In this document: positions 18,329 to 52,115 of the stretch, piece by piece
Numbering within the stretch: the first letter of the stretch is position 1
Layout of the letters: each line of letters starts with the position of its first letter
NCBI GenBank assembly: GCA_977018835.1
Contig: CDRNXO010000001.1
Location: 1 to 64,000 of the forward strand
Source: Minutocellus sp. GHC0000111
Taxonomy: Eukaryota
DNA: 64,000 nt
Direction: 5' to 3'
Made by a program: the position numbers and the translations under genes
Notes under the pieces: model-generated
Databases searched by the model: none
Told to the model about the DNA's origin: nothing
Seen by the model: the letters and a program-made list of their open reading frames with translations, nothing else

Positions 18329-18859
18329 GACGAGGGTGGGCGAATGAGAAAAGAAAACTCTTCGGTCGGACTCTCCAGATCTACTAGATTAGCCTACTAC
18401 GTAGCTTCTAAGCTACGTAGCTAGACTCTATTGCGCACATTATGTACACCACGCGCAGCCTCGGAGGGCTTGGGGGCTCCTGTGGGAGCCCAGCCATGTC
18501 GGCTCGGCAGCTCGCCATCGCCATGGGCTGCCATGCCAAAGCAACGTTTACGACGTCATTTTTCGTCATACAGAATTAGCCCGCATCCCGTCCACCCGTC
18601 CATCCCGCCCGCCACATCTCGCTCGGTCATATTGTGCTCATATTGCTTGCGAGAGTGCGAGAGCTGGGTGACTACCATACCAGGTACTACCGGTAGTAGG
18701 AGCCATTGCGCAATCTGTGTGTGGATTCACGTCCATTGCCCCCCGTGTGCGATGCGATGTCGAGCATGAAAAAAATCAAAGAAGAGGAAGCGAATCGTCG
18801 GCAGCGGCACTCCTCGGATCTTAGGATCCAATGGCCGCTTCCATCTCGAAAGGGACGCC

Positions 18860-20803
18860 ATGGGCGTACCAGGATTTCACGTAGCTGCCAATGTGTTCAG
18901 CCCTTCGGTCCATCGGCGTCTGTTTGAGGAGAAGGCCTTTGAGACAAATCCTCAACCCTTTGTCACGCAGCAGAGCGTGCCAATCCAGCAGACGATCCTG
19001 CACCCGACGAAGGCGGGGATCAATGGACCGTGGCCCGACAACTGGCATCGCATCATCAATGCCGTGCGAGACTCTGGTCTCTTCGAGCAGGCGACAATCC
19101 CAGATTGTGGCTATGGCTTGACGTACAATCCTGGGTCACAATTTCCATGCCACTGGGATGGCAGGGGAAAGTGGGGCGAATACGTCATTGTCGCGACTCT
19201 CGGTGCCCCCTGTACCATAACCATTCAGCATTGCGCTCCCAAGGGCAAGCCCGTGGATCCATCTCGGCCTTGGGATTGGACTCCGTCGGATCCGACGATC
19301 GTATCAGACGATCCGTATTGGACCCGCTCGATGACTGCCGAGGAGGTTCAGCTGGGCAGTTATGGCAACAATAAGCGTCGGCTGTGGCAGGTGACTATGA
19401 CCTTGCCTCCAAATAGTATGTACGTGATGAGTGGACCCTCGCGGTACGATTGGCAACATGGTGTCAACTGCGATCCGAATCACCCTGTGCCCAAATCTAC
19501 ATCGTCGTACATATCGGCAGGTGGGCGAGCTGTGCAAGTGCCTGCCGAAGAATGGCTGTTTCCTTCGTGGAACAAGTTCAAAGCCCGTCGGGGTGTCATC
19601 TACCGCTCCACAAAGTGCTTCAGTGATCTTTGCCTTCAGCAGGAGCGAGAGAAGGCCTATACAGACCGAGACTTTGGGGCCGTCACGGCCGTCAATGCTC
19701 GTATCGATGCGTCCCACCGCTTCAAGCCGCAGGATCAGCATGCCAGTAGAGAGCTGACGGAGGACGAGATTGAAGCGCAGGAGAAGATGGGATGTGCACT
19801 CATTAAGGAGCTGAAGAGAAGTGGCGTCCATCGGCTGCGATTCGCCAAGTCCGAGGTGCTCTTTGAATCGGACAATATGACCAGGGCGGCTGGTGATATT
19901 GATGCTCCCGCAGCATCGATCAAGTTCGATGAGGATGGTAACGTCGAAGAAGATGAGGACGAGAAGAAGGAAGATGATACTACTAGTATTGAGAATATTG
20001 TGGCATTTTCTGGTCAGGGGCGTCGACTTGGGCAAAGCTGGGAAGACCAAGCTACCGCCAAGGGAGGCAACCCTAAAAAGGCTGCATGCGAACCAGAAGT
20101 GATTGATCTTCTTGATTCTGACGACGAAGACGACGACCAAGATATGAAACCAGCGGCTGAGAAACAAGCTCCGGTGCCGGCACCTACGAGCAGGGCGCGT
20201 TCAGGCAGCCAGCAGTCCCACGGAATGAGCAATGCGGGAAGAGCTGCACTGCTGCGTTTTGAGTCGTCAAAGAATGGCGACACAGGAGCATCGGCGGCAG
20301 CCGCGGGTGCGATGTCTTCCCTTACGAACCCAACTGCTTCGTGGCAATGCCATCGGTGTACATTGATCAACAAGCCGAGCGCTCTACAGTGCATCTGCGG
20401 GACCGAGCGTCACGCGAATGCTGCACCAAAGCCCATGCCAACGCAAAATATTGGACCAACGGACCAAGCAGTGGCCCCGATGATTGGCCCGGGCGCTCTT
20501 TCGGCTGCATTGTTTGGTGCAATGGCGGACAGCAAGTCAGCATCTATTCAAATACCATCGACGCAGTATTCTGGCAGCGGTGGCTCGAGCGTGGCGCCCG
20601 GCCATGTTGGCAGCTTGAGGAACAAGCACGCGTACCTACGCAGCAGTGGTAGTGATACCGGTACATCCATCGTCGACAGCAGCAAGCGCCAGAGACCTGA
20701 TGGTGATGACGACAATGATGCGCAAGATTGTTTCTTGATGGGATCGCTACTTGTCGACAACAATCCTGGCGCCTACAGTAGCGGTGGATGGATCTGGACT
20801 TGA
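18860..20803 (+). CDS. AlkB-like 2OG-Fe(II) dioxygenase with SHP-box-like, SIM-like and RanBP2-type zinc-finger motifs; C-terminus probably chimeric
   Basis: YNPGSQFPCHWD, LPPNSMYVMSGPSRYDWQHGV, RRGVIYR; FSGQGRRLG; EVIDLLDSDDEDDD; WQCHRCTLINKPSALQCICGT. Confidence 0.75.
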   Translation: MGVPGFHVAANVFSPSVHRRLFEEKAFETNPQPFVTQQSVPIQQTILHPTKAGINGPWPDNWHRIINAVRDSGLFEQATIPDCGYGLTYNPGSQFPCHWDGRGKWGEYVIVATLGAPCTITIQHCAPKGKPVDPSRPWDWTPSDPTIVSDDPYWTRSMTAEEVQLGSYGNNKRRLWQVTMTLPPNSMYVMSGPSRYDWQHGVNCDPNHPVPKSTSSYISAGGRAVQVPAEEWLFPSWNKFKARRGVIYRSTKCFSDLCLQQEREKAYTDRDFGAVTAVNARIDASHRFKPQDQHASRELTEDEIEAQEKMGCALIKELKRSGVHRLRFAKSEVLFESDNMTRAAGDIDAPAASIKFDEDGNVEEDEDEKKEDDTTSIENIVAFSGQGRRLGQSWEDQATAKGGNPKKAACEPEVIDLLDSDDEDDDQDMKPAAEKQAPVPAPTSRARSGSQQSHGMSNAGRAALLRFESSKNGDTGASAAAAGAMSSLTNPTASWQCHRCTLINKPSALQCICGTERHANAAPKPMPTQNIGPTDQAVAPMIGPGALSAALFGAMADSKSASIQIPSTQYSGSGGSSVAPGHVGSLRNKHAYLRSSGSDTGTSIVDSSKRQRPDGDDDNDAQDCFLMGSLLVDNNPGAYSSGGWIWT

Positions 20804-23800
20804 CCGGAACAACGATGGTATATGTCTGATGATCCCCCGTCTCACAGCTGATTTCGTTAATACAGGCGATACACACGTCCAAATGGAGGGATTGATTCAA
20901 GCGGCGCTTCTTGATATCGACTATGCCTCGTTTTACGACGGGCAGCTCTCCTCGAGTTACTCTCTGGATGATTTTGGGGAAGCAGTCAAGCAGTCAAAGC
21001 TTGCGATCACGCCGTCGGTACTTTTGCTGCAGCAAACGGCATCGGCGATGCTCTGAGAGCCTTTGATGTGGCACCAGACCTGGAAAACGAATATGTATGT
21101 TCCTCGCATGACGACGAAGCCGCGCACGTCATTTTAACCGTCTTCAACAGTGGGCTAGAAACATTTCGGCACTTGATTCCGTATTTGTGGTCGATAGGAT
21201 TGATGTGTTGAGCACGCCGCTCCACAAACTCATGGCAGTTGCTCGCCAATCAAGCGACAGACAGAGTTTTTTGGCCCAAAGTCGCAACTCTTCACATCAC
21301 TCCCTTTCTAGTATTGGGCGACGGCCTCTTTGGCATGAGACCCAGACGCCTTGGACTGTTCTTGTCGGCGGGCTCAAGATTCTTTGGACTCTGGAGATTA
21401 GGGATGCCCTCCTTTCATTGTCACAAGATCTTATTTTTACCCTGGACTACATGAAGCTTGCTTTGAGAACAATGCCTTCGAAACACAAGGGATCGAACGA
21501 GGACGACCGCTCTTTTATACACCAAAACGGGGCAACGAATGGTGCGGTATTGACTGATAGCGTTCGAACTCAGGCCACTGCGCACGACGTTGACGAAGAT
21601 GGTGCGTCTCAGTCGAGCGATGACCTGGATTTGGATTATCTGCTTGGCGATTCTTCGCTCGGTCACCTCATTGAAGATGAGAAAGACAATAGTTCGAATC
21701 TTCAGAAGCCAAGGCTGAGTCGAAACATTTCTGTGCAGGAGGCCCGCCAGGCTTCCGGGGATTCGAATAGATCTATCGGCGGCGGCGGCGGCGGCGTCAA
21801 GGCATCAAAGAACGCTAGTATCTCCACTCTTGATGTCCATTTATCGAACCCTCAGTTCCAGCTTCACAGTGACCAAACGGGTGGAAGCGTGATCTTGGCA
21901 ATGAGAGGTGCATACATTGATGGGCAGCGATATCTCAATCTGATCGACCCGGATAACTTGTTGAATGCAGCATCGACGTCGATTGATAGCTCAAAGCTTG
22001 CGATCACGCCGTCGGTACTTTTGCTGCAGCAAACGGCATCGGCGATGCTCTGAGAGCCTTTGATGTGGCACCAGACCTGGAAAACGAATATGTATGTTCC
22101 TCGCATGACGACGAAGCCGCGCACGTCATTTTAACCGTCTTCAACAGTGGGCTAGAAACATTTCGGCACTTGATTCCGTATTTGTGGTCGATAGGATTGA
22201 TGTGTTGAGCACGCCGCTCCACAAACTCATGGCAGTTGCTCGCCAATCAAGCGACAGACAGAGTTTTTTGGCCCAAAGTCGCAACTCTTCACATCACTCC
22301 CTTTCTAGTATTGGGCGACGGCCTCTTTGGCATGAGACCCAGACGCCTTGGACTGTTCTTGTCGGCGGGCTCAAGATTCTTTGGACTCTGGAGATTAGGG
22401 ATGCCCTCCTTTCATTGTCACAAGATCTTATTTTTACCCTGGACTACATGAAGCTTGCTTTGAGAACAATGCCTTCGAAACACAAGGGATCGAACGAGGA
22501 CGACCGCTCTTTTATACACCAAAACGGGGCAACGAATGGTGCGGTATTGACTGATAGCGTTCGAACTCAGGCCACTGCGCACGACGTTGACGAAGATGGT
22601 GCGTCTCAGTCGAGCGATGACCTGGATTTGGATTATCTGCTTGGCGATTCTTCGCTCGGTCACCTCATTGAAGATGAGAAAGACAATAGTTCGAATCTTC
22701 AGAAGCCAAGGCTGAGTCGAAACATTTCTGTGCAGGAGGCCCGCCAGGCTTCCGGGGATTCGAATAGATCTATCGGCGGCGGCGGCGGCGGCGTCAAGGC
22801 ATCAAAGAACGCTAGTATCTCCACTCTTGATGTCCATTTATCGAACCCTCAGTTCCAGCTTCACAGTGACCAAACGGGTGGAAGCGTGATCTTGGCAATG
22901 AGAGGTGCATACATTGATGGGCAGCGATATCTCAATCTGATCGACCCGGATAACTTGTTGAATGCAGCATCGACGTCGATTGATAGCCTCTTGCAGAAGA
23001 CTGAATTTCAATACACGCTTGATAGAATGGAGATCTATGCAATTGCCCCAGGAGTGGACGTCGATGCAGGACTTCAGTGGCTTGACTATCACGAGAATGT
23101 CAACAGCGGCGATGGGGACACTTTTGAGGCTGACGACTATTCACAAGATGGAGATAATTACAACAGTGATGAAGACGAACTCCCGAGTATTTTGCCTTCG
23201 CTCTCGGTTCAGGGAGGAAGTATACGAGAGATGCCAGATGTAAAGGCATTTTCGCGAAGGCATTTTCAGCCTCGATTTGCCCAGTATGATCCCAAGACAT
23301 TCCGCAAGCCGCCTCTTATGCAACTCATCATGAACAGATGCACCTTCGACTCACGCCAAGTCTTTCACCGGAGCCCGCACCATCTATCAAGTGACGAATT
23401 GGCAGCATATATCAGAAGAGGCTACTTGGAGCCCTTGCTTGAATCAGCCTTGGACCAAGTTGACCTACACATCGACGAGATGTCGTTCATGTTGGACTCG
23501 CACCAGTACATCACCACGTTCGATTTGATACGAAACGTCCTTCTCGAGCCGCCCAAAGTTTCCAACAAGAGAGAAAGGCGACTGTTTGCCGAAGCAAAGG
23601 AGGAGCCATCGGACCAGGAGGAAGAGCTGCAGGAGATATCTGACGAAGCTGAGCAAGATGAGGCAACTGCCAATGTCGAAGCAATTGTCGAGGAATGGAA
23701 CACAAAGTTCCCTAGGCTCAAAGACGGAGTCCATCGACAGCGGAAAAGAATTCGCCAGCAGCTTCGAAATGCCAGTCAAAAGCTCATGGCGCCGCTTGAA

Positions 23801-39237: not shown

Positions 39238-39403
39238 GGTTGTTGTTGTTGGTGGTGGTGGTGGGATATGCCGGCCAGGGTTGGCCGTTCACAGCCCCAT
39301 CTCGTCTTGTTTCGCCGGTCGGATGAAGCGTTTTTCGGCAGAAGACGAACACGTCACGAAGAAACCCACCAAAACCCAATCTCGTTCGTCACCCATTCTT
39401 TGA

Positions 39404-42090
39404 CCGTCCAACACCATGGTGGTCCGTCGGCGTTGCGCCGGCGTATAACTATATTTTCGTACCAAACACGCATTCATTATCATGTTTGGATATAGTTGAA
39501 GCTTACTGTATCCTCAGATTGGCCTCCGCTGCGTATCAACGCCACGAACCATCGGCCTGCTTTTCCTCCATCTGTCGGCCGTTCGTTTCTCTGGGGTGGT
39601 GCCATTGCTCCATCTTTGTGCTCGTCGTGCTCCCGTTGTGATGCCCCAGACCCTCTGGTACTTTCCCACGTTGTTGTTGATGATAAACTGCCGGGATTGC
39701 GCCGCACCCCCCGTATGACCGACTCTCGCTGATCCCGACCGATCGCATCCCCACTCGACCTCCCGGAATTCCGACAACAATTTTGCGCCCGAGGAGAGAC
39801 AGATAGCATTGGGATAAGTTTATGCAACAATCAACCCGACAAAGGGACTTTTTGGTCTGGGAGATAAATGGGTGAGTTAAGAAGGACGTGATGTGTTTGT
39901 TTGGGTGCACTATTTACTTTTTTGCTCAATCGCGATGCTGTTTGTAAAAGTTGGACTGTTGTGCAATTCATTTGTCATTGTGTAGCAGTGGTGTGATTTC
40001 ATTTTCTAATTTTACACATGCCCTGCTCCCATCTCTACATCCTCATCTCCATCGGTGGCCATCATGATCATTTGTTGGCGCTTGTCATCAGTTTCTGCTT
40101 TAACAGCTTCGGTCCTTGTCCTTTTCCTTGTTCTTGCCACCCGAGAGTTTCGCTCCCGCCTCTCCTCGACCTTTGGATTGGATGCCCTCTCCTCAGCCTT
40201 GAACTGCGCCGTCTGTTGGGCCTCATGTCCCTTGACGCCCTGAGTCCGACGATCTTCCTTAACGCCCTCTTGGTGGGCTCGCTCTACAAACGATTCGTCG
40301 AGCCAACAGATGCCGCCCCATCCATTCTTCACTAGCCAAATGTGTTGGTCCAAGATGTGATCTTCGAGTAAGTGCCACTTGGGCGTTGTGCTAAAACACC
40401 GATTGCCCGTGCTTGCTTGAGGGCACTTGCAATCAATGCTTCAAGCTCTCTCACAGCCTTCTTTGCCTCATCATCCCATTTCATGCACCATTTCAGAAAC
40501 GTGGAATGTGTTGCGTCAAGAGTGTGGAGCAAATTAGAGCAAGCTTTGCAGAGCTCTTTGATGTCGTCATCCGTCATGCCATCTTCCTCGCGATTGTGCT
40601 CTAGGAGAGCTCCTTTGGTGGAGGTGTTATGGTGGGGATGAACTCTGTTGTCCTTGGTTTCTTCTTGTTGTTGCCATCAGAAATATTAATAGATAAAGCT
40701 CTCCAGCATTCTGCCAGCACTGCCCTTATTTTACCTGAGTCGGCCGCCTCAATGCCGGCCTTTTTCAGGAAATGGAAGTGAGGGGCATCGTCATCCTCGG
40801 CATCATCGACAGCTCCCATCTCTGGCTCGCCATCACCGTGCTTCTGACGACTCTTCTCAAAGTGCTGCTGCATGCATGTTTCATGTGCAGCGTCCTCTCT
40901 TGCAACATCAGCTTCGTCCTCATAACAGGGCACACAGTCCTCGTCTTCGTCGTCATCGTCCTCACTGATCTCGCCGGCCTCCGTCGTGGTCAGGGTGCCC
41001 ACCGTCCCAACATCGTCGTCATTGTCCCACCCATCGTCCTGGCCATTACACCCACCAGGGAACTTCTGGGCCTCGAGCAACATCTGCCTGTTGATTTCGT
41101 AGTCCATCGCCACATATCCCACCGATGTGTGTGGTGCGACCGACTTGAGGAATGCATTGCATGCCTTCGTCAAATTGAGCCGCGGCGGCGGTGTTTCGAG
41201 GCGAAATTGTTGCTCGACCGTGACCATGTCGAAAGCCATCCATCCATCATCATGGAGAGCGTCGGCTGCACGAGGATTGATAGAACCGAGGCGAACAAAC
41301 ATGCTCTTTTTGCATGGGGTTCGCTGAACGTCGTCGGCAAGGCAGTGTCTTGATACCATTTCATCCCATCCATTCTGGTTGTCTGTCCTCTCACAAAAAA
41401 CACATCGCAGTCTTCGTGTTTCTTCTTCTTCAAACCCAAGATGCCCGCAGTGCACATGACGGCGCCGTACATGATGGGACTGCATCCCAACACATTCATC
41501 AAGGAGTCGTTGTTGTTGCCGATGAAATTGTAGTAATGAAGTTCCTTTCTGCGAAGACGGACGAGCAGTTCAGCCAGGGCGTCCTGCACCGCAACTCTGT
41601 CTGCGGTGTTGACCGCGGGATTGCGGCCGTTGTTTGTTTTGCTCATGGAGAATTATGGATCGAGACCAACGGGAATATCACCAGGATGTCGGGAGTACCT
41701 GGTTGGTCTCGTGCCGTAATTCTCCCACACCAGCGCGAGATATCGCCTTCGTTCTGCACGTAGCGGCGGCAATTTGAATTTTTGCCGCCATGGTGGCTCA
41801 CGTTGGGCGCGCCGGTCGGTTGCTTCGCGCGCCGGCCGGCCACCGAAAGTGCGACCAAAAGTATGCGAGTCATCCGGCTGGCAGATGGTGCTGTGCGTTG
41901 AATGAAGCAACAAAGGCGTTTTGCACAATTTGCACATGAAATATTTTTCATTCAAAAGAGCTCGAAAGACCCCCCTGAAGATGAAAGGCAACTACCATTG
42001 AAGAGTTTCGAGGTCCGGAGGACACAAAGTATCAAAAGGATCAAATTAAACCTAATGACTATGTATTTTGATTACCACCATGTTGGAAGG
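39404..42090 (-). mobile_element. Decayed DNA transposon with a Transib/RAG1/Chapaev-type transposase C-terminus; internally deleted and frameshifted
   Basis: Reading 40386->40270 gives TPKWHLLEDH...GGICWLDESFVERAHQ. Fragmented ORFs 40012-41646. Imperfect inverted termini at 39404-39423 and 42074-42090; boundaries tentative. Confidence 0.55.
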
Positions 42091-42120
42091 AACGACCATA
42101 CCAAGATGACAGCACCGCAT
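42088..42120 (+). rRNA. 5S rRNA: 5S rRNA gene, 5' fragment (about nt 1-33)
   Basis: AGGAACGACCATACCAAGATGACAGCACCGCAT has the conserved CATACC and GCACC.CAT. GGAACGAC pairs with GTTGTTCT, and AAGATG pairs with CATCTT of the 3' fragment. Confidence 0.9.
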
Positions 42121-44423
42121 ATTTCCATTCGATGACATCCACAGCCAGGATATTGTTTTGGAGTCGTGGGCAGACTTGCGCGAGGTAGTGAGCAACAATC
42201 CGGGAGCCATTGATGATTGCCTGTTTCCAATTAGCGGGATGAACTACGGAAACGGAGTTGACACCATGACCAATATTTTTTTTATGGACGGCAGAGATCC
42301 GCGACAGCCCAACCGAATCATGGTATCGGCCGATTACGAAGAAAGAGGGTACGACGAAACAATACAGAGCAAAGTGGCTCGGGTTGGGATGTATTCGTAT
42401 CATTTATGCGAACCAGCGTGCTTTCAGTGCCGCCCATGTAAAGACGGTGGGCTAGAACCATTGATGGAATTGGGAGTCGAGGTATGGAAGATGATTCGGC
42501 CCTACCTGTACGATAATGGGTGCATGTCAACGCCTGCCCTCCCAACACATGTCAGGGGGTAGTGCATTTTGGTAACAGTGATATTGCGGCACATCAAGAC
42601 ATGAATCCATTGATGGGAATAGATCTTCACGATAACAGCCAGTGCGTGGGATCGGCAGTCATTGGCATTTCTCTCTATGCAGAACAGATATTTGCTTTGT
42701 TGAACAAGCCATTTCCGTACCACAAAACGGCAAGGTACACCCACGAGAACATGGCAAAGGATGCGAGTGGAAAATACATTGCTTTCCAGACCAATCATGG
42801 TCAGATTTACGTCCTCCTTCCAGATGCAGACATCAAGTACTATCACCACGCTTCTACCCAAGTGGTGAGACGGCAGAGATTGGCCGTGTGAGAATATCTC
42901 TGACCTACCGATGGTCGGGAAAGAATGGGTTTGTCTGCACCGATCTGACGAAGGAGCTGGGAAGGGCACAAGTCCGACCTGACCCAATTGGAGATCTCAG
43001 AGGGATGGGCCCCATGCTGTTTCTCCCGGTCTACTTACTTTCCTCACCACCCCCCTATTTGATACGGACATCTTCCCTCCGTACCTCAAGAAAAGATACA
43101 ATGCCTACTGCAATCGTCGCCCAGGAGTGGGATTCACTCTCGAGCAATTTGCCACACTTATATTGACCTGCAACTGCTTCGCGTGCGGTGCCAGCCCAAT
43201 GGATGTAATGATGACCATTGACCGGTACAACAATGCCATCAGGTACACCGGTCAGGACGAAGTAGTGCTGTGCATTTGCTGCCAGAACCATAAGAGCAGC
43301 GATAGTATGCAGACTCTCCTCGATCACTCCCGCTCCATTGCAGCTCATGTTGAGGCAACTCCAGCTCTCTTGGAATTATCCCAGACAACATTCTTCCAGC
43401 CCTTCACTGAGGAACAAGATGAGGCTCTTCTTCGGATCTGTCGTTCTCTCAGGGTCGATGTCGAGCAAGGATACAGCAATGCTCTCGCAAGGAGGATGAG
43501 AGAGGGCGGACATGGTCTCCGCAGTAGAGAGGAGGTCATGATGAGGCTGCAGTATCTTGTATCAAGGTGGGATGGTAAGCTGTGCCTTTATTGCGACAGC
43601 AAGGGTGTCACTGTCAAGTTAGCGAACGACAAGGGTCCACTCGGGGAGACTATTGGCCAGCTCGTCGAGGAGGAGAACAACATCGTCGCTGAATGTCTTG
43701 CAGCCAACAACATTGATACAAACAGCATTTCGGTAGACGTCCAGTGCCTCATTGTATCGACCCTAGAGCAATCCGGTTTCTCTCGTACCATTTCGCAGAT
43801 CAAGCACCATGTCCGTCGCTACTTTGATGGTGAGGTGCTGACAATGCCAGAACAGAGGGTGCGGTACACCAAGTATCGCCACGAGGAGATAGTAGGAGGC
43901 ATCAATGAAGCTGGCATACGTGATCGGGGATATGCCGCCAGCATTGTTGGCGTTCCCAGGGCCGAGTTGACTGCCTTCCTCGAAGGCCACAGGAGCGTAG
44001 CTGAAAATGTCTTTCATTCCATCGGATACGAGCAGAAAGTGTTCAATGCAAACAGGGACGAGTACATTCGACTTTGTGGACCCGAATTCTACACCTTTTC
44101 CAAGTGCAATACTTGCGACCACTACGGATGCTTGCCAATCAAGCGATTGGATGGCTGGGGCAATATCAAGGCCAAACCGGGGAAAAAGCACTCTCGTTGC
44201 ACAGTGGACGAAAAGGGTAGGTACGAGGAGGTTCAGGACGTGTCGGACATTACGCCCAGCACCTATAAATGCACAATTAAGTTTTAGAAAATTAATTTGT
44301 ATTGCCTTTTGGATCTTATGTGTAGGAATTCCTATGCCTGTAACATGGCATCGACAGCACCGCATACCAATTTAAGCAATACAATAGCATCAGGTTTAGC
44401 ATTAGCGTCTACCCTTACCTTCA
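42121..44423 (+). mobile_element. ~2.3 kb insertion interrupting the 5S rRNA gene
   Basis: Lies exactly between the complementary 5S halves. GACAGCACCGCATA occurs at 42108-42121 and again at 44353-44366. Confidence 0.8.
42122..44287 (+). pseudogene. 5'-truncated, frameshifted ORF: AlkB-like 2OG-Fe(II) domain, HNH-like nuclease domain, two Myb/SANT-like repeats and a Cys-rich tail
   Basis: AHQD...VIGISL...HGQIYVL...YYHH...RISLTYRW; CFACG...TIDRYNN..Y...VVLCICCQNHK; FTEEQDEALL...RSREEVMMRLQYL. Shifts near 42555, 42885 and 43000. Last frame open 42983-44287. Confidence 0.65.
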
Positions 44424-44509
44424 CCGTTCGCTCTGCGAAGTTAAGCATCTTCGGGCTCAGTTAGTACTGCGGTGGGGGACCACGTTGGAATCCTGAGTGT
44501 TGTTCTTTT
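44424..44509 (+). rRNA. 5S rRNA: 5S rRNA gene, 3' fragment (about nt 35-end) with oligo-T Pol III terminator
   Basis: CCGTTCGCTCTGCGAAGTTAAGC...GTTAGTACT.CGGTGGGGGACCACGTTGGAATCCTGAGTGTTGTTCTTTT; box A (AGTTAAGC) and box C region recognisable. Confidence 0.95.
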
Positions 44510-45050
44510 GTTTTTGCCGCTTTTGGAAGTCCCAACGTGCCCCTGGATCGTTCTTGGGCCTGACTTTTGTTCTGTTGTGTCTGGGAGGTGTTTATTTTTA
44601 TTCATACCAATTGGTATTTGTTGACATGCAGATTATCTGGAAATGCTCAGTTATGTTATGAACGTCTTCCACTTTCAATTCATATTCTATCATCGCCTCT
44701 GCTATCCTGTTTCCTGTTTTACCGGTGCTGCACACTGAATCCATAGCAAGGTATTCCCTGAGTGTTGTTCTTTTGCTCTTTTGATGGACGAGACGACGAG
44801 ACGGTGGTTGGACTGTTTTTTGCCTTTTGTAAGTGATTGGAGGTCCAGGCCTTTCACGGGGTTCCGTTTAGCGGCCTTCAAGTCAGAGATGGCGGCAAGG
44901 GAGCCCGGCACATCTAGCTAGTCTAACAATTCATGGAATTCCAATTCATGCCTCACAGTTGTATTCTACTTAGATCTATGTACATGTCATGTATGTGCAG
45001 GCTTCGAAGCTAGTGGCCAATCCCCCTCTCCCCGATCTCCCCAGAAAATC

Positions 45051-50399: not shown

Positions 50400-50860
50400 C
50401 CTTGTAAGGCTTATCTTATCCTGCTGCTGCGCGGACGCGTTGTTGTTGTTGCAGGCAGGTGGCCTGGCTGGTCTGGTATCATTGTTGAAGGCGATCCATG
50501 CGCCCGTCGGCCGGCGGATCTAAAAATCTGTTTTATAAGAATAGGAGACCTCTCATACGAGCATGCCATTTTCGAGATCTTGAAACGCCACATGCATGGC
50601 TGCGCGAACCAGCACCGGCTCTCGCCTGACTCTCTCTCTTGTTGGTATTTTCACACAAAGTCATCGGCGGAGAGCGCAGCTGCACTCTTATCCCATAAAT
50701 TGATCTTCGGTGGTCACTTGTCATTTTGGCTCGCTCGCCTCCGCTCCGTCACATTTTTCATCTGCCGAGCCGTGCACATCATTGCCTTCGTCTCTTCGTC
50801 AAACCTCATCTTTCTCAGCCACGCACACATTTCAAGAATAATTGCACACTGCCAACCAAT

Positions 50861-50948
<88 letters not shown>
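50861..50948 (+). repeat. (CTA)n microsatellite, about 29 units
   Basis: Uninterrupted trinucleotide run ending 1 nt before the ATG at 50950. Confidence 0.99.
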
Positions 50949-50949
50949 A

Positions 50950-52115
50950 ATGAATCTTCCCTTCAACACCGACGTAATCGCAACCATCTTCAATGAGGAC
51001 GCGACGTTCCTCGATCTGCTCGCCCTTGTCCTGGCCCTTGCGGTCTTTTGGTTCGTCATCTTTGCCATAGCCGCCGCCATCATCAAACCCCTAGTAATGG
51101 GCAAGCCTCATCGCTGCCGGCGAACGTGATTATGACCGCGGCGGAAAGGAGCTCTGGGAGAACGTTGGCGCTCCCAAGACCAAGGCAGAATTTGTCGTAT
51201 CCTTCATGGACATGTGGGCCTGGAACCAGACCTTGGCCATCCAGCATCTCATCGGCGGAGCGGTGTGTTTGCCGGCCATCATTCCCAGTCACTTGGGACT
51301 GGATCCGTCCGTGGCGGCCAGTCTCGCGTGTCTGGGCATTCTGTCCGAAATGGGATGGGAGATCGAGGACCAATTGACTTGGATCTACAAGCGCTTCTTC
51401 ACAAAGGGGGGTAAGGAGAAGGTACCGAATGCTCTGCTGATTATCCTGGGTATCCACCACAGCATGACAACCATTCTCGGCCTCCCCATGGTGTTGAATT
51501 ATCGTGATCTCCCTACACTGCACTGGCTGTGTTTTGACTTGCAAGCTGCAGCCGCAATCAGTCTCATGGTCACCGAATACACGAATCTCCTTGACATTAC
51601 CAAGCCCAATCAGCTTCGACAGTTCCAATCGTTGACCTTTTTTGGGCTTGTCGTTATGGTTGCTACTCGAGGATTCCACTGGGTCTTTCTTTGTGGCAGC
51701 CTGCTCGTAATGTGGTATCAGGAGGGAAGATGGTCGTTGGTACCATAATCTCGCACTCTTCTCTATGTTCAACTATGCGTTCTGCATCGAGCCCTACTAT
51801 AAAAGGTTTACCAAATTTGTGAAAGTCTCTGCCGAGTACAAGAAGTTAACCGCGGATGCGCCGGCCCGTGACAGACGCGCCAGCGTCATCAATCTCGAGG
51901 CTGCCGCAGCTGACATTATCAAGCGTGGCAACATCGAGGAAGAACTTGTGGCAAGCTTGTTCGAGGACCGAAAGGTCAATCGCCGAGCTACTTTGCCGCC
52001 ATCTGCCTTCAGTGGCAACAAGGGCAGTAAGAGATCATCGCTGCTTCTGCTTCGAAGCTCAATGGGAGATGTCGCCCATCTTCTGTCGCAGCTCGATACC
52101 ATCAAGGAGGATTAG
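50950..52115 (+). pseudogene. TLC-like multi-pass membrane protein with two frameshifts
   Basis: TM helices; QHLIGG, LSEMGWEIED, GIHHSM. Shifts near 51107 and 51745. Confidence 0.65.

Follow-up and report, generated by a model that had tools for sequence, protein, structure and literature searches.

The window (the whole 64,000-nt stretch of DNA analysed) is eukaryotic, probably from a diatom to judge by its gene style, has interrupted genes and contains a 5S rRNA locus that is flanked by a P-type ATPase gene and a SET-domain gene and is split by a 2,303-nt insert (42121..44423); the insert is oriented as the 5S gene, and all features of either that are described below lie on the + strand. 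Nucleotides 1-32 of the 5S rRNA are found to the left of the insertion point (42089..42120; 29 of 32 positions identical to the intact 5S gene of a related locus, L008) and nucleotides 34-118 to its right (44424..44508; 83 of 85 identical to L008); the right-hand part matches Rfam family RF00001 (34.9 bits, E 2.2e-4). At the insertion point the CCC run of the 5S gene is one C short, and intact joins of 42120 to 44424 with one C between occur in three of four sequencing runs (X1, X5 and X6). An earlier reading of the sequence alone (the sequence-only reading) had placed the element within a 5S gene, and the Rfam match and these intact joins bear it out. A TATA-like element precedes the gene (42060..42072) at a spacing equivalent to that in relatives' 5S loci; among twelve such loci fetched (L001-L012), four had too little upstream DNA for comparison, and seven of the eight intact loci with enough show a TATA-like motif at similar spacing. 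In L011, an intact 5S gene adjoins the orthologue of the window's SET-domain gene (79% identity over 188 codons), which indicates that the locus is old and was empty in a relative; with its upstream element kept and an intact syntenic form elsewhere, the interrupted gene is a real, conserved 5S locus. The 5S genes of the relatives (L001-L012) appear dispersed, with mostly unique flanks, a shared TATA-like motif and no tandem arrays. The final 19 nt of the 5S gene and its T run recur 265 nt downstream (44757-44775), and length variants between the two 3'-end copies occur in runs X1 and X5.

Contig joins and longer copies show that the insert belongs to a multi-copy family and has lost its 5' part. 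In X1, X5 and X6, contigs trace the insert to 42120 and then continue for 1,546, 1,284 and 1,378 nt, respectively, of other sequence. Two longer copies on two other contigs, represented by the predicted proteins P0008 (408 aa) and P0012 (411 aa), add 156 upstream codons in frame to the first open reading frame, ORF1; the window copy is therefore cut inside ORF1, exactly at the 5S border, where one T belongs to both sides (a 1-nt overlap). A contig of run X7 carries the identical 5' junction with 20 nt of 5S and is not a second locus; the junction is absent among the X1 contigs listed, a set that cannot prove absence. Mean depth of the insert in X1 is 1.6 times that of the flank. Relatives of the second open reading frame, ORF2, at 98% and 89% identity were found on contigs of 264,863, 5,175,589 and 5,317,691 nt, and on short contigs for the 89% lineage; the proteins of the 5.18-Mb contig are identical or near-identical to those of the window, and this contig may be the window's own locus and not independent evidence of a copy. 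In P0003 and P0004, family sequence is joined to alien N-termini that are not translations of the 5' part of the 5S gene; P0004, on the same contig as P0012, departs from the family sequence at 43016, a point at which X1 contigs are also broken; this would fit a secondary insertion. The family's link to 5S genes comes from the one 5S locus seen.

No terminal inverted repeats and no poly(A) were found at the insert, and the parts of the family seen (the 408-aa ORF1 and ORF2) gave no Pfam match to reverse transcriptase (RT), DDE, tyrosine-recombinase or HUH families; a region of at least 0.8-1.1 kb upstream of the P0008 start, outside the sequence seen, could hold an RT or a transposase. Rfam returned no self-splicing intron, either at the gathering score or at E up to 1, for a window copy whose 5' part is truncated away. 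The viral contigs and phage records searched contained no relatives of the insert proteins. In runs X6 and X7 the insert has a depth of 5-6; the depth ratio of the neighbouring high-copy repeat to the insert is 92 in X6 and 89 in X7, versus 154 in DNA run X1 and 630 in X5, and, being of the same order as in X1, it suggests that this coverage may be DNA carry-over; X6 and X7 coverage gives no evidence that the insert is transcribed. The neighbouring repeat itself (39290-41895) is 2.6 kb long, has imperfect terminal inverted repeats starting CACAGC and ORFs without a significant Pfam family, and reaches approximately 250 times the flank depth in X1 over the part covered; one X1 contig joins its right end (41895) to position 44368 in the tail of the 5S element.

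String comparison located near the 3' end of the insert a 13-nt copy (44353..44365) of the 5S sequence directly left of the insertion point (42108-42120); the string occurs only at these two places in the 64-kb window, and a match of at least 13 nt anywhere in the insert was obtained in 2 of 2000 shuffles. A 58-nt tail without poly(A) (44366..44423) separates this target copy from the resumed 5S gene. The 13-nt copy is spanned by an X5 contig and by an X1 contig whose depth of 185.6, against 118.4 for the flank contig, shows that the tail is common to several copies, about three haploid copies in X1; the X1 contig ends at 44420, 3 nt before the right junction, and the 3' flanks of the other copies lie beyond. 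By its position within the shared tail, the target copy appears to tie the whole family, beyond the window copy, to the 5S site. A role of the tail in rebuilding a 5S-like fold was considered and rejected as weak (z 0.35); the duplex of 44368-44423 with the 3' part of 5S (-30.8 kcal/mol) is a post hoc observation that 47 of 1000 shuffles match.

ORF2 comprises 434 codons from stop to stop (42983..44287); no start codon precedes its first Cys pair, and the first ATG falls inside a predicted nuclease domain (43073..43354) with a block of the form CxxC..IDR...Y...CxxC..K (Cys at 43175, 43184, 43271 and 43280). A search of 1.84 billion proteins gave 14 matches, of which 13 are distant (E 2e-5 to 1e-3), all on query residues 25-132; six short relatives (five matches and a cluster mate) align gap-free over the catalytic core. 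PacI was the best solved structure by profile (E 4.9e-5), ranked first in Foldseek (E 0.05, prob 0.99) and gave the best VIA-align superposition (Z 8.8, rmsd 3.6, 105 aligned; next structure Z 5.4). The predicted domain has the beta-beta-alpha fold with two CxxC zinc pairs, and D58, R59 and Y66 are invariant in alignment A3 and in register with PacI; sequence and model together confirm the predicted fold as PacI-type, His-Me finger group 20. An HNH-like, His-Me-finger nuclease had been proposed in the sequence-only reading, together with profile and structure searches as its check; all four lines of comparison (protein search, profile, Foldseek and VIA-align) agree with that proposal and sharpen it to the PacI type. 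The PacI group is mainly viral and common in giant viruses, with Tyr in place of the catalytic His (PMC5714182, in part), and PacI itself holds its metal by Asp and Asn (PMC4081073, in part). Like PacI (PDB 3ldy/3m7k; PMC5714182, in part), the insert domain has two CxxC pairs, DR for DH and a Tyr eight residues after the Asp, and its relatives likewise occur in giant viruses and phages; unlike PacI, it has Gln for the metal-binding Asn, is fused to C-terminal helical units and belongs to a nuclear, multi-copy element in a 5S gene. Predicted viral matches to the domain are mostly giant-virus and phage proteins, none of them at E 0.001 or better; ORF2 has weak PHROGs matches (E 0.005 at best) and ORF1 has none, and no part of the insert has a significant Pfam match.

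Two positions of the domain are changed: an Asn is replaced by Asp (43256), and the metal-binding Asn after the second CxxC pair by Gln (43283). The Gln is found in the window, P0001, P0005 and P0007, and the Asn is kept in all six distant relatives aligned. Both changes are present in P0007, which represents the 89%-identical lineage. Comparison of the window with P0007 shows 42 substitutions, of which 22 are conservative (neutral expectation 13-14, the observed value reached in 1-6 of 600 simulations) and nine radical (neutral expectation 19-21, reached in 0-1 of 600); this pattern indicates that ORF2 is under purifying selection and that the nuclease domain, with putative cleavage activity, is maintained. 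Since the two replacements are common to a lineage under such selection, they do not represent recent decay; the earlier description of some nuclease positions as degenerate fits these changed residues.

Downstream of the nuclease domain, the model places two three-helix units with low confidence (pLDDT blocks 46-61), at 43409..43570 and 43652..43825, which resemble Myb/SANT repeats by motif. A trihelix motif, fitted by eye, has two matches in six frames of the 64 kb, both in these units. Neither unit has a significant profile match, and no Myb repeat was found by Pfam or by PDB sequence search; the two units show no measurable similarity to each other (862 of 2000 shuffles reach their score), and the DMAP1 chain aligns with the model at Z 3.6, rank 28, below noise. 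The two Myb/SANT-like repeats of the sequence-only reading accordingly stand as motif and predicted helices, without confirmation by any profile. The CxxC-containing tail that it described was found at 44105..44131, with the Cys kept in P0007, in a region where the model is unreliable. Its single fused AlkB-nuclease-Myb protein is putative: no relative of 761-2170 aa was found, which by itself is weak evidence, and the longer copies end the AlkB-like frame where the window does.

The remnant of ORF1 (42122..42888) carries an AlkB-like 2OG-Fe(II) core with the motifs HQD (42592-42600) and YYHH (42838-42849); RISLTYR, the last AlkB-type strand, lies behind the ORF1 stop in the -1 frame (42891..42911). 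These motifs and three frameshifts had been noted before, and all of them were located: the reading is interrupted near 42530, at 42850-42890 and at 43000-43015, each time by a -1 break. P0008 and P0012 lack the first break. All five sequences (window, P0008, P0010, P0011 and P0012) carry the second and stop before the last strand, so that none holds the AlkB-like domain in one frame; the YYHH spacer before this break varies by 0, 3 or 4 codons, all in frame. The AlkB-like part has no Pfam, PDB or Atlas match. It was compared with a home-made AlkB profile built from segments of 40 of 42 bacterial PF13532 loci (L140, L143 and L144 left out), segments that were picked by their terminal motif, which favours that motif. 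The ORF1 read-through scored 14.5 bits, second of 514 targets (best of 300 shuffles, 3.0 bits); the top target, at 19.2 bits, was the positive control, a host gene assigned to PF13532 by Pfam. This host 2OG-Fe(II) oxygenase lies in the same window (18770-20800, + strand; PF13532 E 7e-7, just under the cut-off) and has a RanBP-type zinc ribbon. P0008 rose from 8.0 to 17.2 bits when the RISLTYR piece behind its stop was included, a score reached by none of 300 shuffled pieces; its single-sequence fold has a pLDDT of 31. With motifs and profile score on one side and the lack of database matches on the other, the AlkB-like assignment of the sequence-only reading receives moderate support, and the insert likely encodes an AlkB-type enzyme.

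With equal score, the second break may fall on the stop, at the overlap of GTG-TGA with GTG-AGA; beneath ORF1 the -1 frame stays open over 84 codons, a length matched in 24 of 5000 random recodings (a post hoc test that assumed uniform codon use). Decay common to the copies, recoding or an in-frame intron could each explain the break. An intron at 42865-43000 (GTGAG...CTGAC...CAG) would join ORF1 and ORF2 in frame and remove two of the breaks; it is ranked lower because it drops RISLTYR (6.3 vs 14.5 bits), because no spliced join occurs among the joins listed, and because contigs of X6 and X7 continue 18-20 nt past the donor. Shorter introns that would retain RISLTYR were rejected for their poor splice sites.

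The flush truncation, the 3' end shared with its target copy and the selected nuclease-like domain together point to a 5S-directed element that was copied from its 3' end. As no RT or transposase was found in the parts seen, homing is ranked first among four readings: the insert, a partly decayed and 5'-truncated member of a small mobile family at nt 32/34 of the 5S gene, would spread in a homing-like manner, a reading held tentatively and at something less than an even chance. The PacI-type nuclease, guided by the two predicted three-helix units as DNA-binding modules, would cleave an empty 5S gene, which the host would then repair from an occupied copy, starting at the 3' side. Copying would be primed by the 85 nt of homology to 5S on the right, and a 5' truncation with 1-nt overlap would result from premature release on the left, where the homology is short (32 nt). 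The AlkB-like gene would be cargo, likely acting on methylated DNA or RNA bases, and would have lost its function in the copies seen unless recoding at its stop completes it. The 5S-directed element of the sequence-only reading is supported to this extent by the multi-copy family, the 5' truncation, the target copy in the tail and the intact syntenic gene. The main weaknesses of the homing reading are the single 5S locus, the Gln in place of the Asn that, together with Asp, binds the metal in PacI, and the 5' part that lies beyond the sequence seen. Also against it, 5' truncation with microhomology is a classic sign of target-primed reverse transcription, and 85 nt is short for ectopic gene conversion; the alien N-termini of P0003 and P0004 and the missing start codon of ORF2 count against it as well.

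Two known systems bear on homing by a His-Me finger nuclease. KolobokP is a eukaryotic transposon with such a nuclease that has been proposed to spread by cleavage and recombination (PMC9587614, in part); unlike the insert, its nuclease has a His-Cys box (I-PpoI-like) and it carries a DDE transposase and long terminal direct repeats. The I-PpoI-type homing endonucleases of nuclear rDNA group I introns (described in part in PMC9587614) similarly place a His-Me finger gene inside an rRNA gene; unlike them, the insert has no self-splicing intron detected by Rfam, belongs to another nuclease group, destroys the gene and occurs in truncated copies.

A second, rather unlikely reading is a 5S-specific retroelement of R2 or Mutsu style. 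Its RT would be encoded in the unseen 5' part or supplied in trans, its endonuclease would be the PacI-type domain, and the 13-nt repeat would have arisen as a captured target duplication or by 3' read-through. The kept target orientation, the fixed 3' end and the mid-ORF 5' truncation with 1-nt overlap speak for this reading, and 5' truncation with a shared 3' end, as in the insert, is the pattern of target-specific non-LTR elements (R2, Mutsu, Utopia). LINEs specific to 5S are known in Mutsu (PMC5340908, in part), which is also multi-copy and inserted within the 5' half of 5S genes; unlike Mutsu, which is about 5.5 kb long with ORF1, an endonuclease-RT and poly(A), the insert has none of these detected in the parts seen. 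Copies of Utopia that are 5'-truncated often lack target sequence on the 5' side (PMC4640811, in part), which could explain P0003. AlkB cargo is known from orchid Gypsy elements (PMC9289625, in part), which like the insert carry a 2OG-Fe(II) dioxygenase; unlike it, they are LTR retrotransposons that are not site-specific, and their AlkB is intact and was shown to be active. Against a retroelement, no RT was found in the 408-aa ORF1 or in ORF2, the search for a relative of 761-2170 aa came up empty (again weak evidence), and poly(A) is absent; the nuclease seen is a His-Me finger, neither APE nor restriction-like; the Myb-like units are C-terminal here, unlike in R2; and coverage in X6 and X7 yields no evidence of transcription.

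Less likely again is an untargeted origin, in which one old insertion with a 13-nt target duplication later received a 58-nt insert and was spread by duplication or as transposon cargo, its proteins being decaying, virus-derived passengers. The single 5S locus would suit this account, as would the frame breaks common to all copies seen, the alien joins of P0003 and P0004 with the X1 contig that links 41895 in the neighbouring high-copy repeat to 44368, and the viral appearance of the closest nuclease relatives; yet it requires two insertions at one base and a deletion starting exactly at the 5S junction, and is opposed by the purifying selection on ORF2 across lineages and by spacer changes of 0, 3 and 4 codons that all stay in frame.

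Least probable of the four is a 5S-targeted element with a dead, DNA-binding PacI-like domain, inserted by an unseen 5' enzyme such as a Dada-like DDE transposase or a recombinase: both replaced Asn positions are conserved under selection, and His-Me fingers have been reused as binding domains, for example MH1 (PMC5714182, in part), but the active-site Asp, Arg and Tyr are kept, the 6-7 bp duplications of Dada contrast with a 1-nt loss and a 13-nt repeat here, and cut-and-paste transposition would leave a mid-ORF truncation flush with the target unexplained. Dada elements, including the Dada-5S family, resemble the insert in targeting small RNA genes, among them 5S, in lacking terminal inverted repeats and in having target-like motifs near their ends (PMC3706591 and PMC8869645, both in part); unlike Dada, the insert shows neither a DDE transposase in the parts seen nor a 6-7 bp target-site duplication, as one C is lost and the 13-nt repeat lies 58 nt inside.

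In location, the insert resembles Mutsu, Dada-5S and the rDNA homing endonucleases, and in the parts seen it shows the full set of defining features of none. No description of this combination was found among literature titles and abstracts, a scope that leaves out Repbase, supplements and most subscription papers. A nuclease with an AlkB-type enzyme would be an unusual toolkit for a parasite of ribosomal genes; the known 5S-targeted elements depend on an RT (in Mutsu) or on a DDE transposase (in Dada-5S), as far as described in the parts of these sources drawn on above. If the homing reading is true, the PacI-type tyrosine nuclease would be a new enzyme class in site-specific eukaryotic mobile DNA, linked to nucleases of giant viruses; the AlkB cargo would hint at a means of countering methylation by the host as a defence, and the element could offer a safe-harbour insertion tool for algae. 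A 5S duplex around nt 20-45 provides a directly testable substrate. A bolder version, speculative and on balance improbable, would make the family a new class of eukaryotic nuclear selfish element without RT, transposase or intron. It would home from one dispersed 5S gene to another by means of a virus-derived, tyrosine-based nuclease of the PacI type, targeted by SANT-like domains, and would carry an AlkB-type demethylase that programmed recoding completes at the conserved GTG-TGA overlap.

Elsewhere in the window, 20994-22987 holds two identical 997-nt units arranged head to tail (100% identity), a duplication that either is recent or was introduced by the assembly, and a long trinucleotide microsatellite at approximately 50860-50955 reads as poly-Thr at the start of an ORF.
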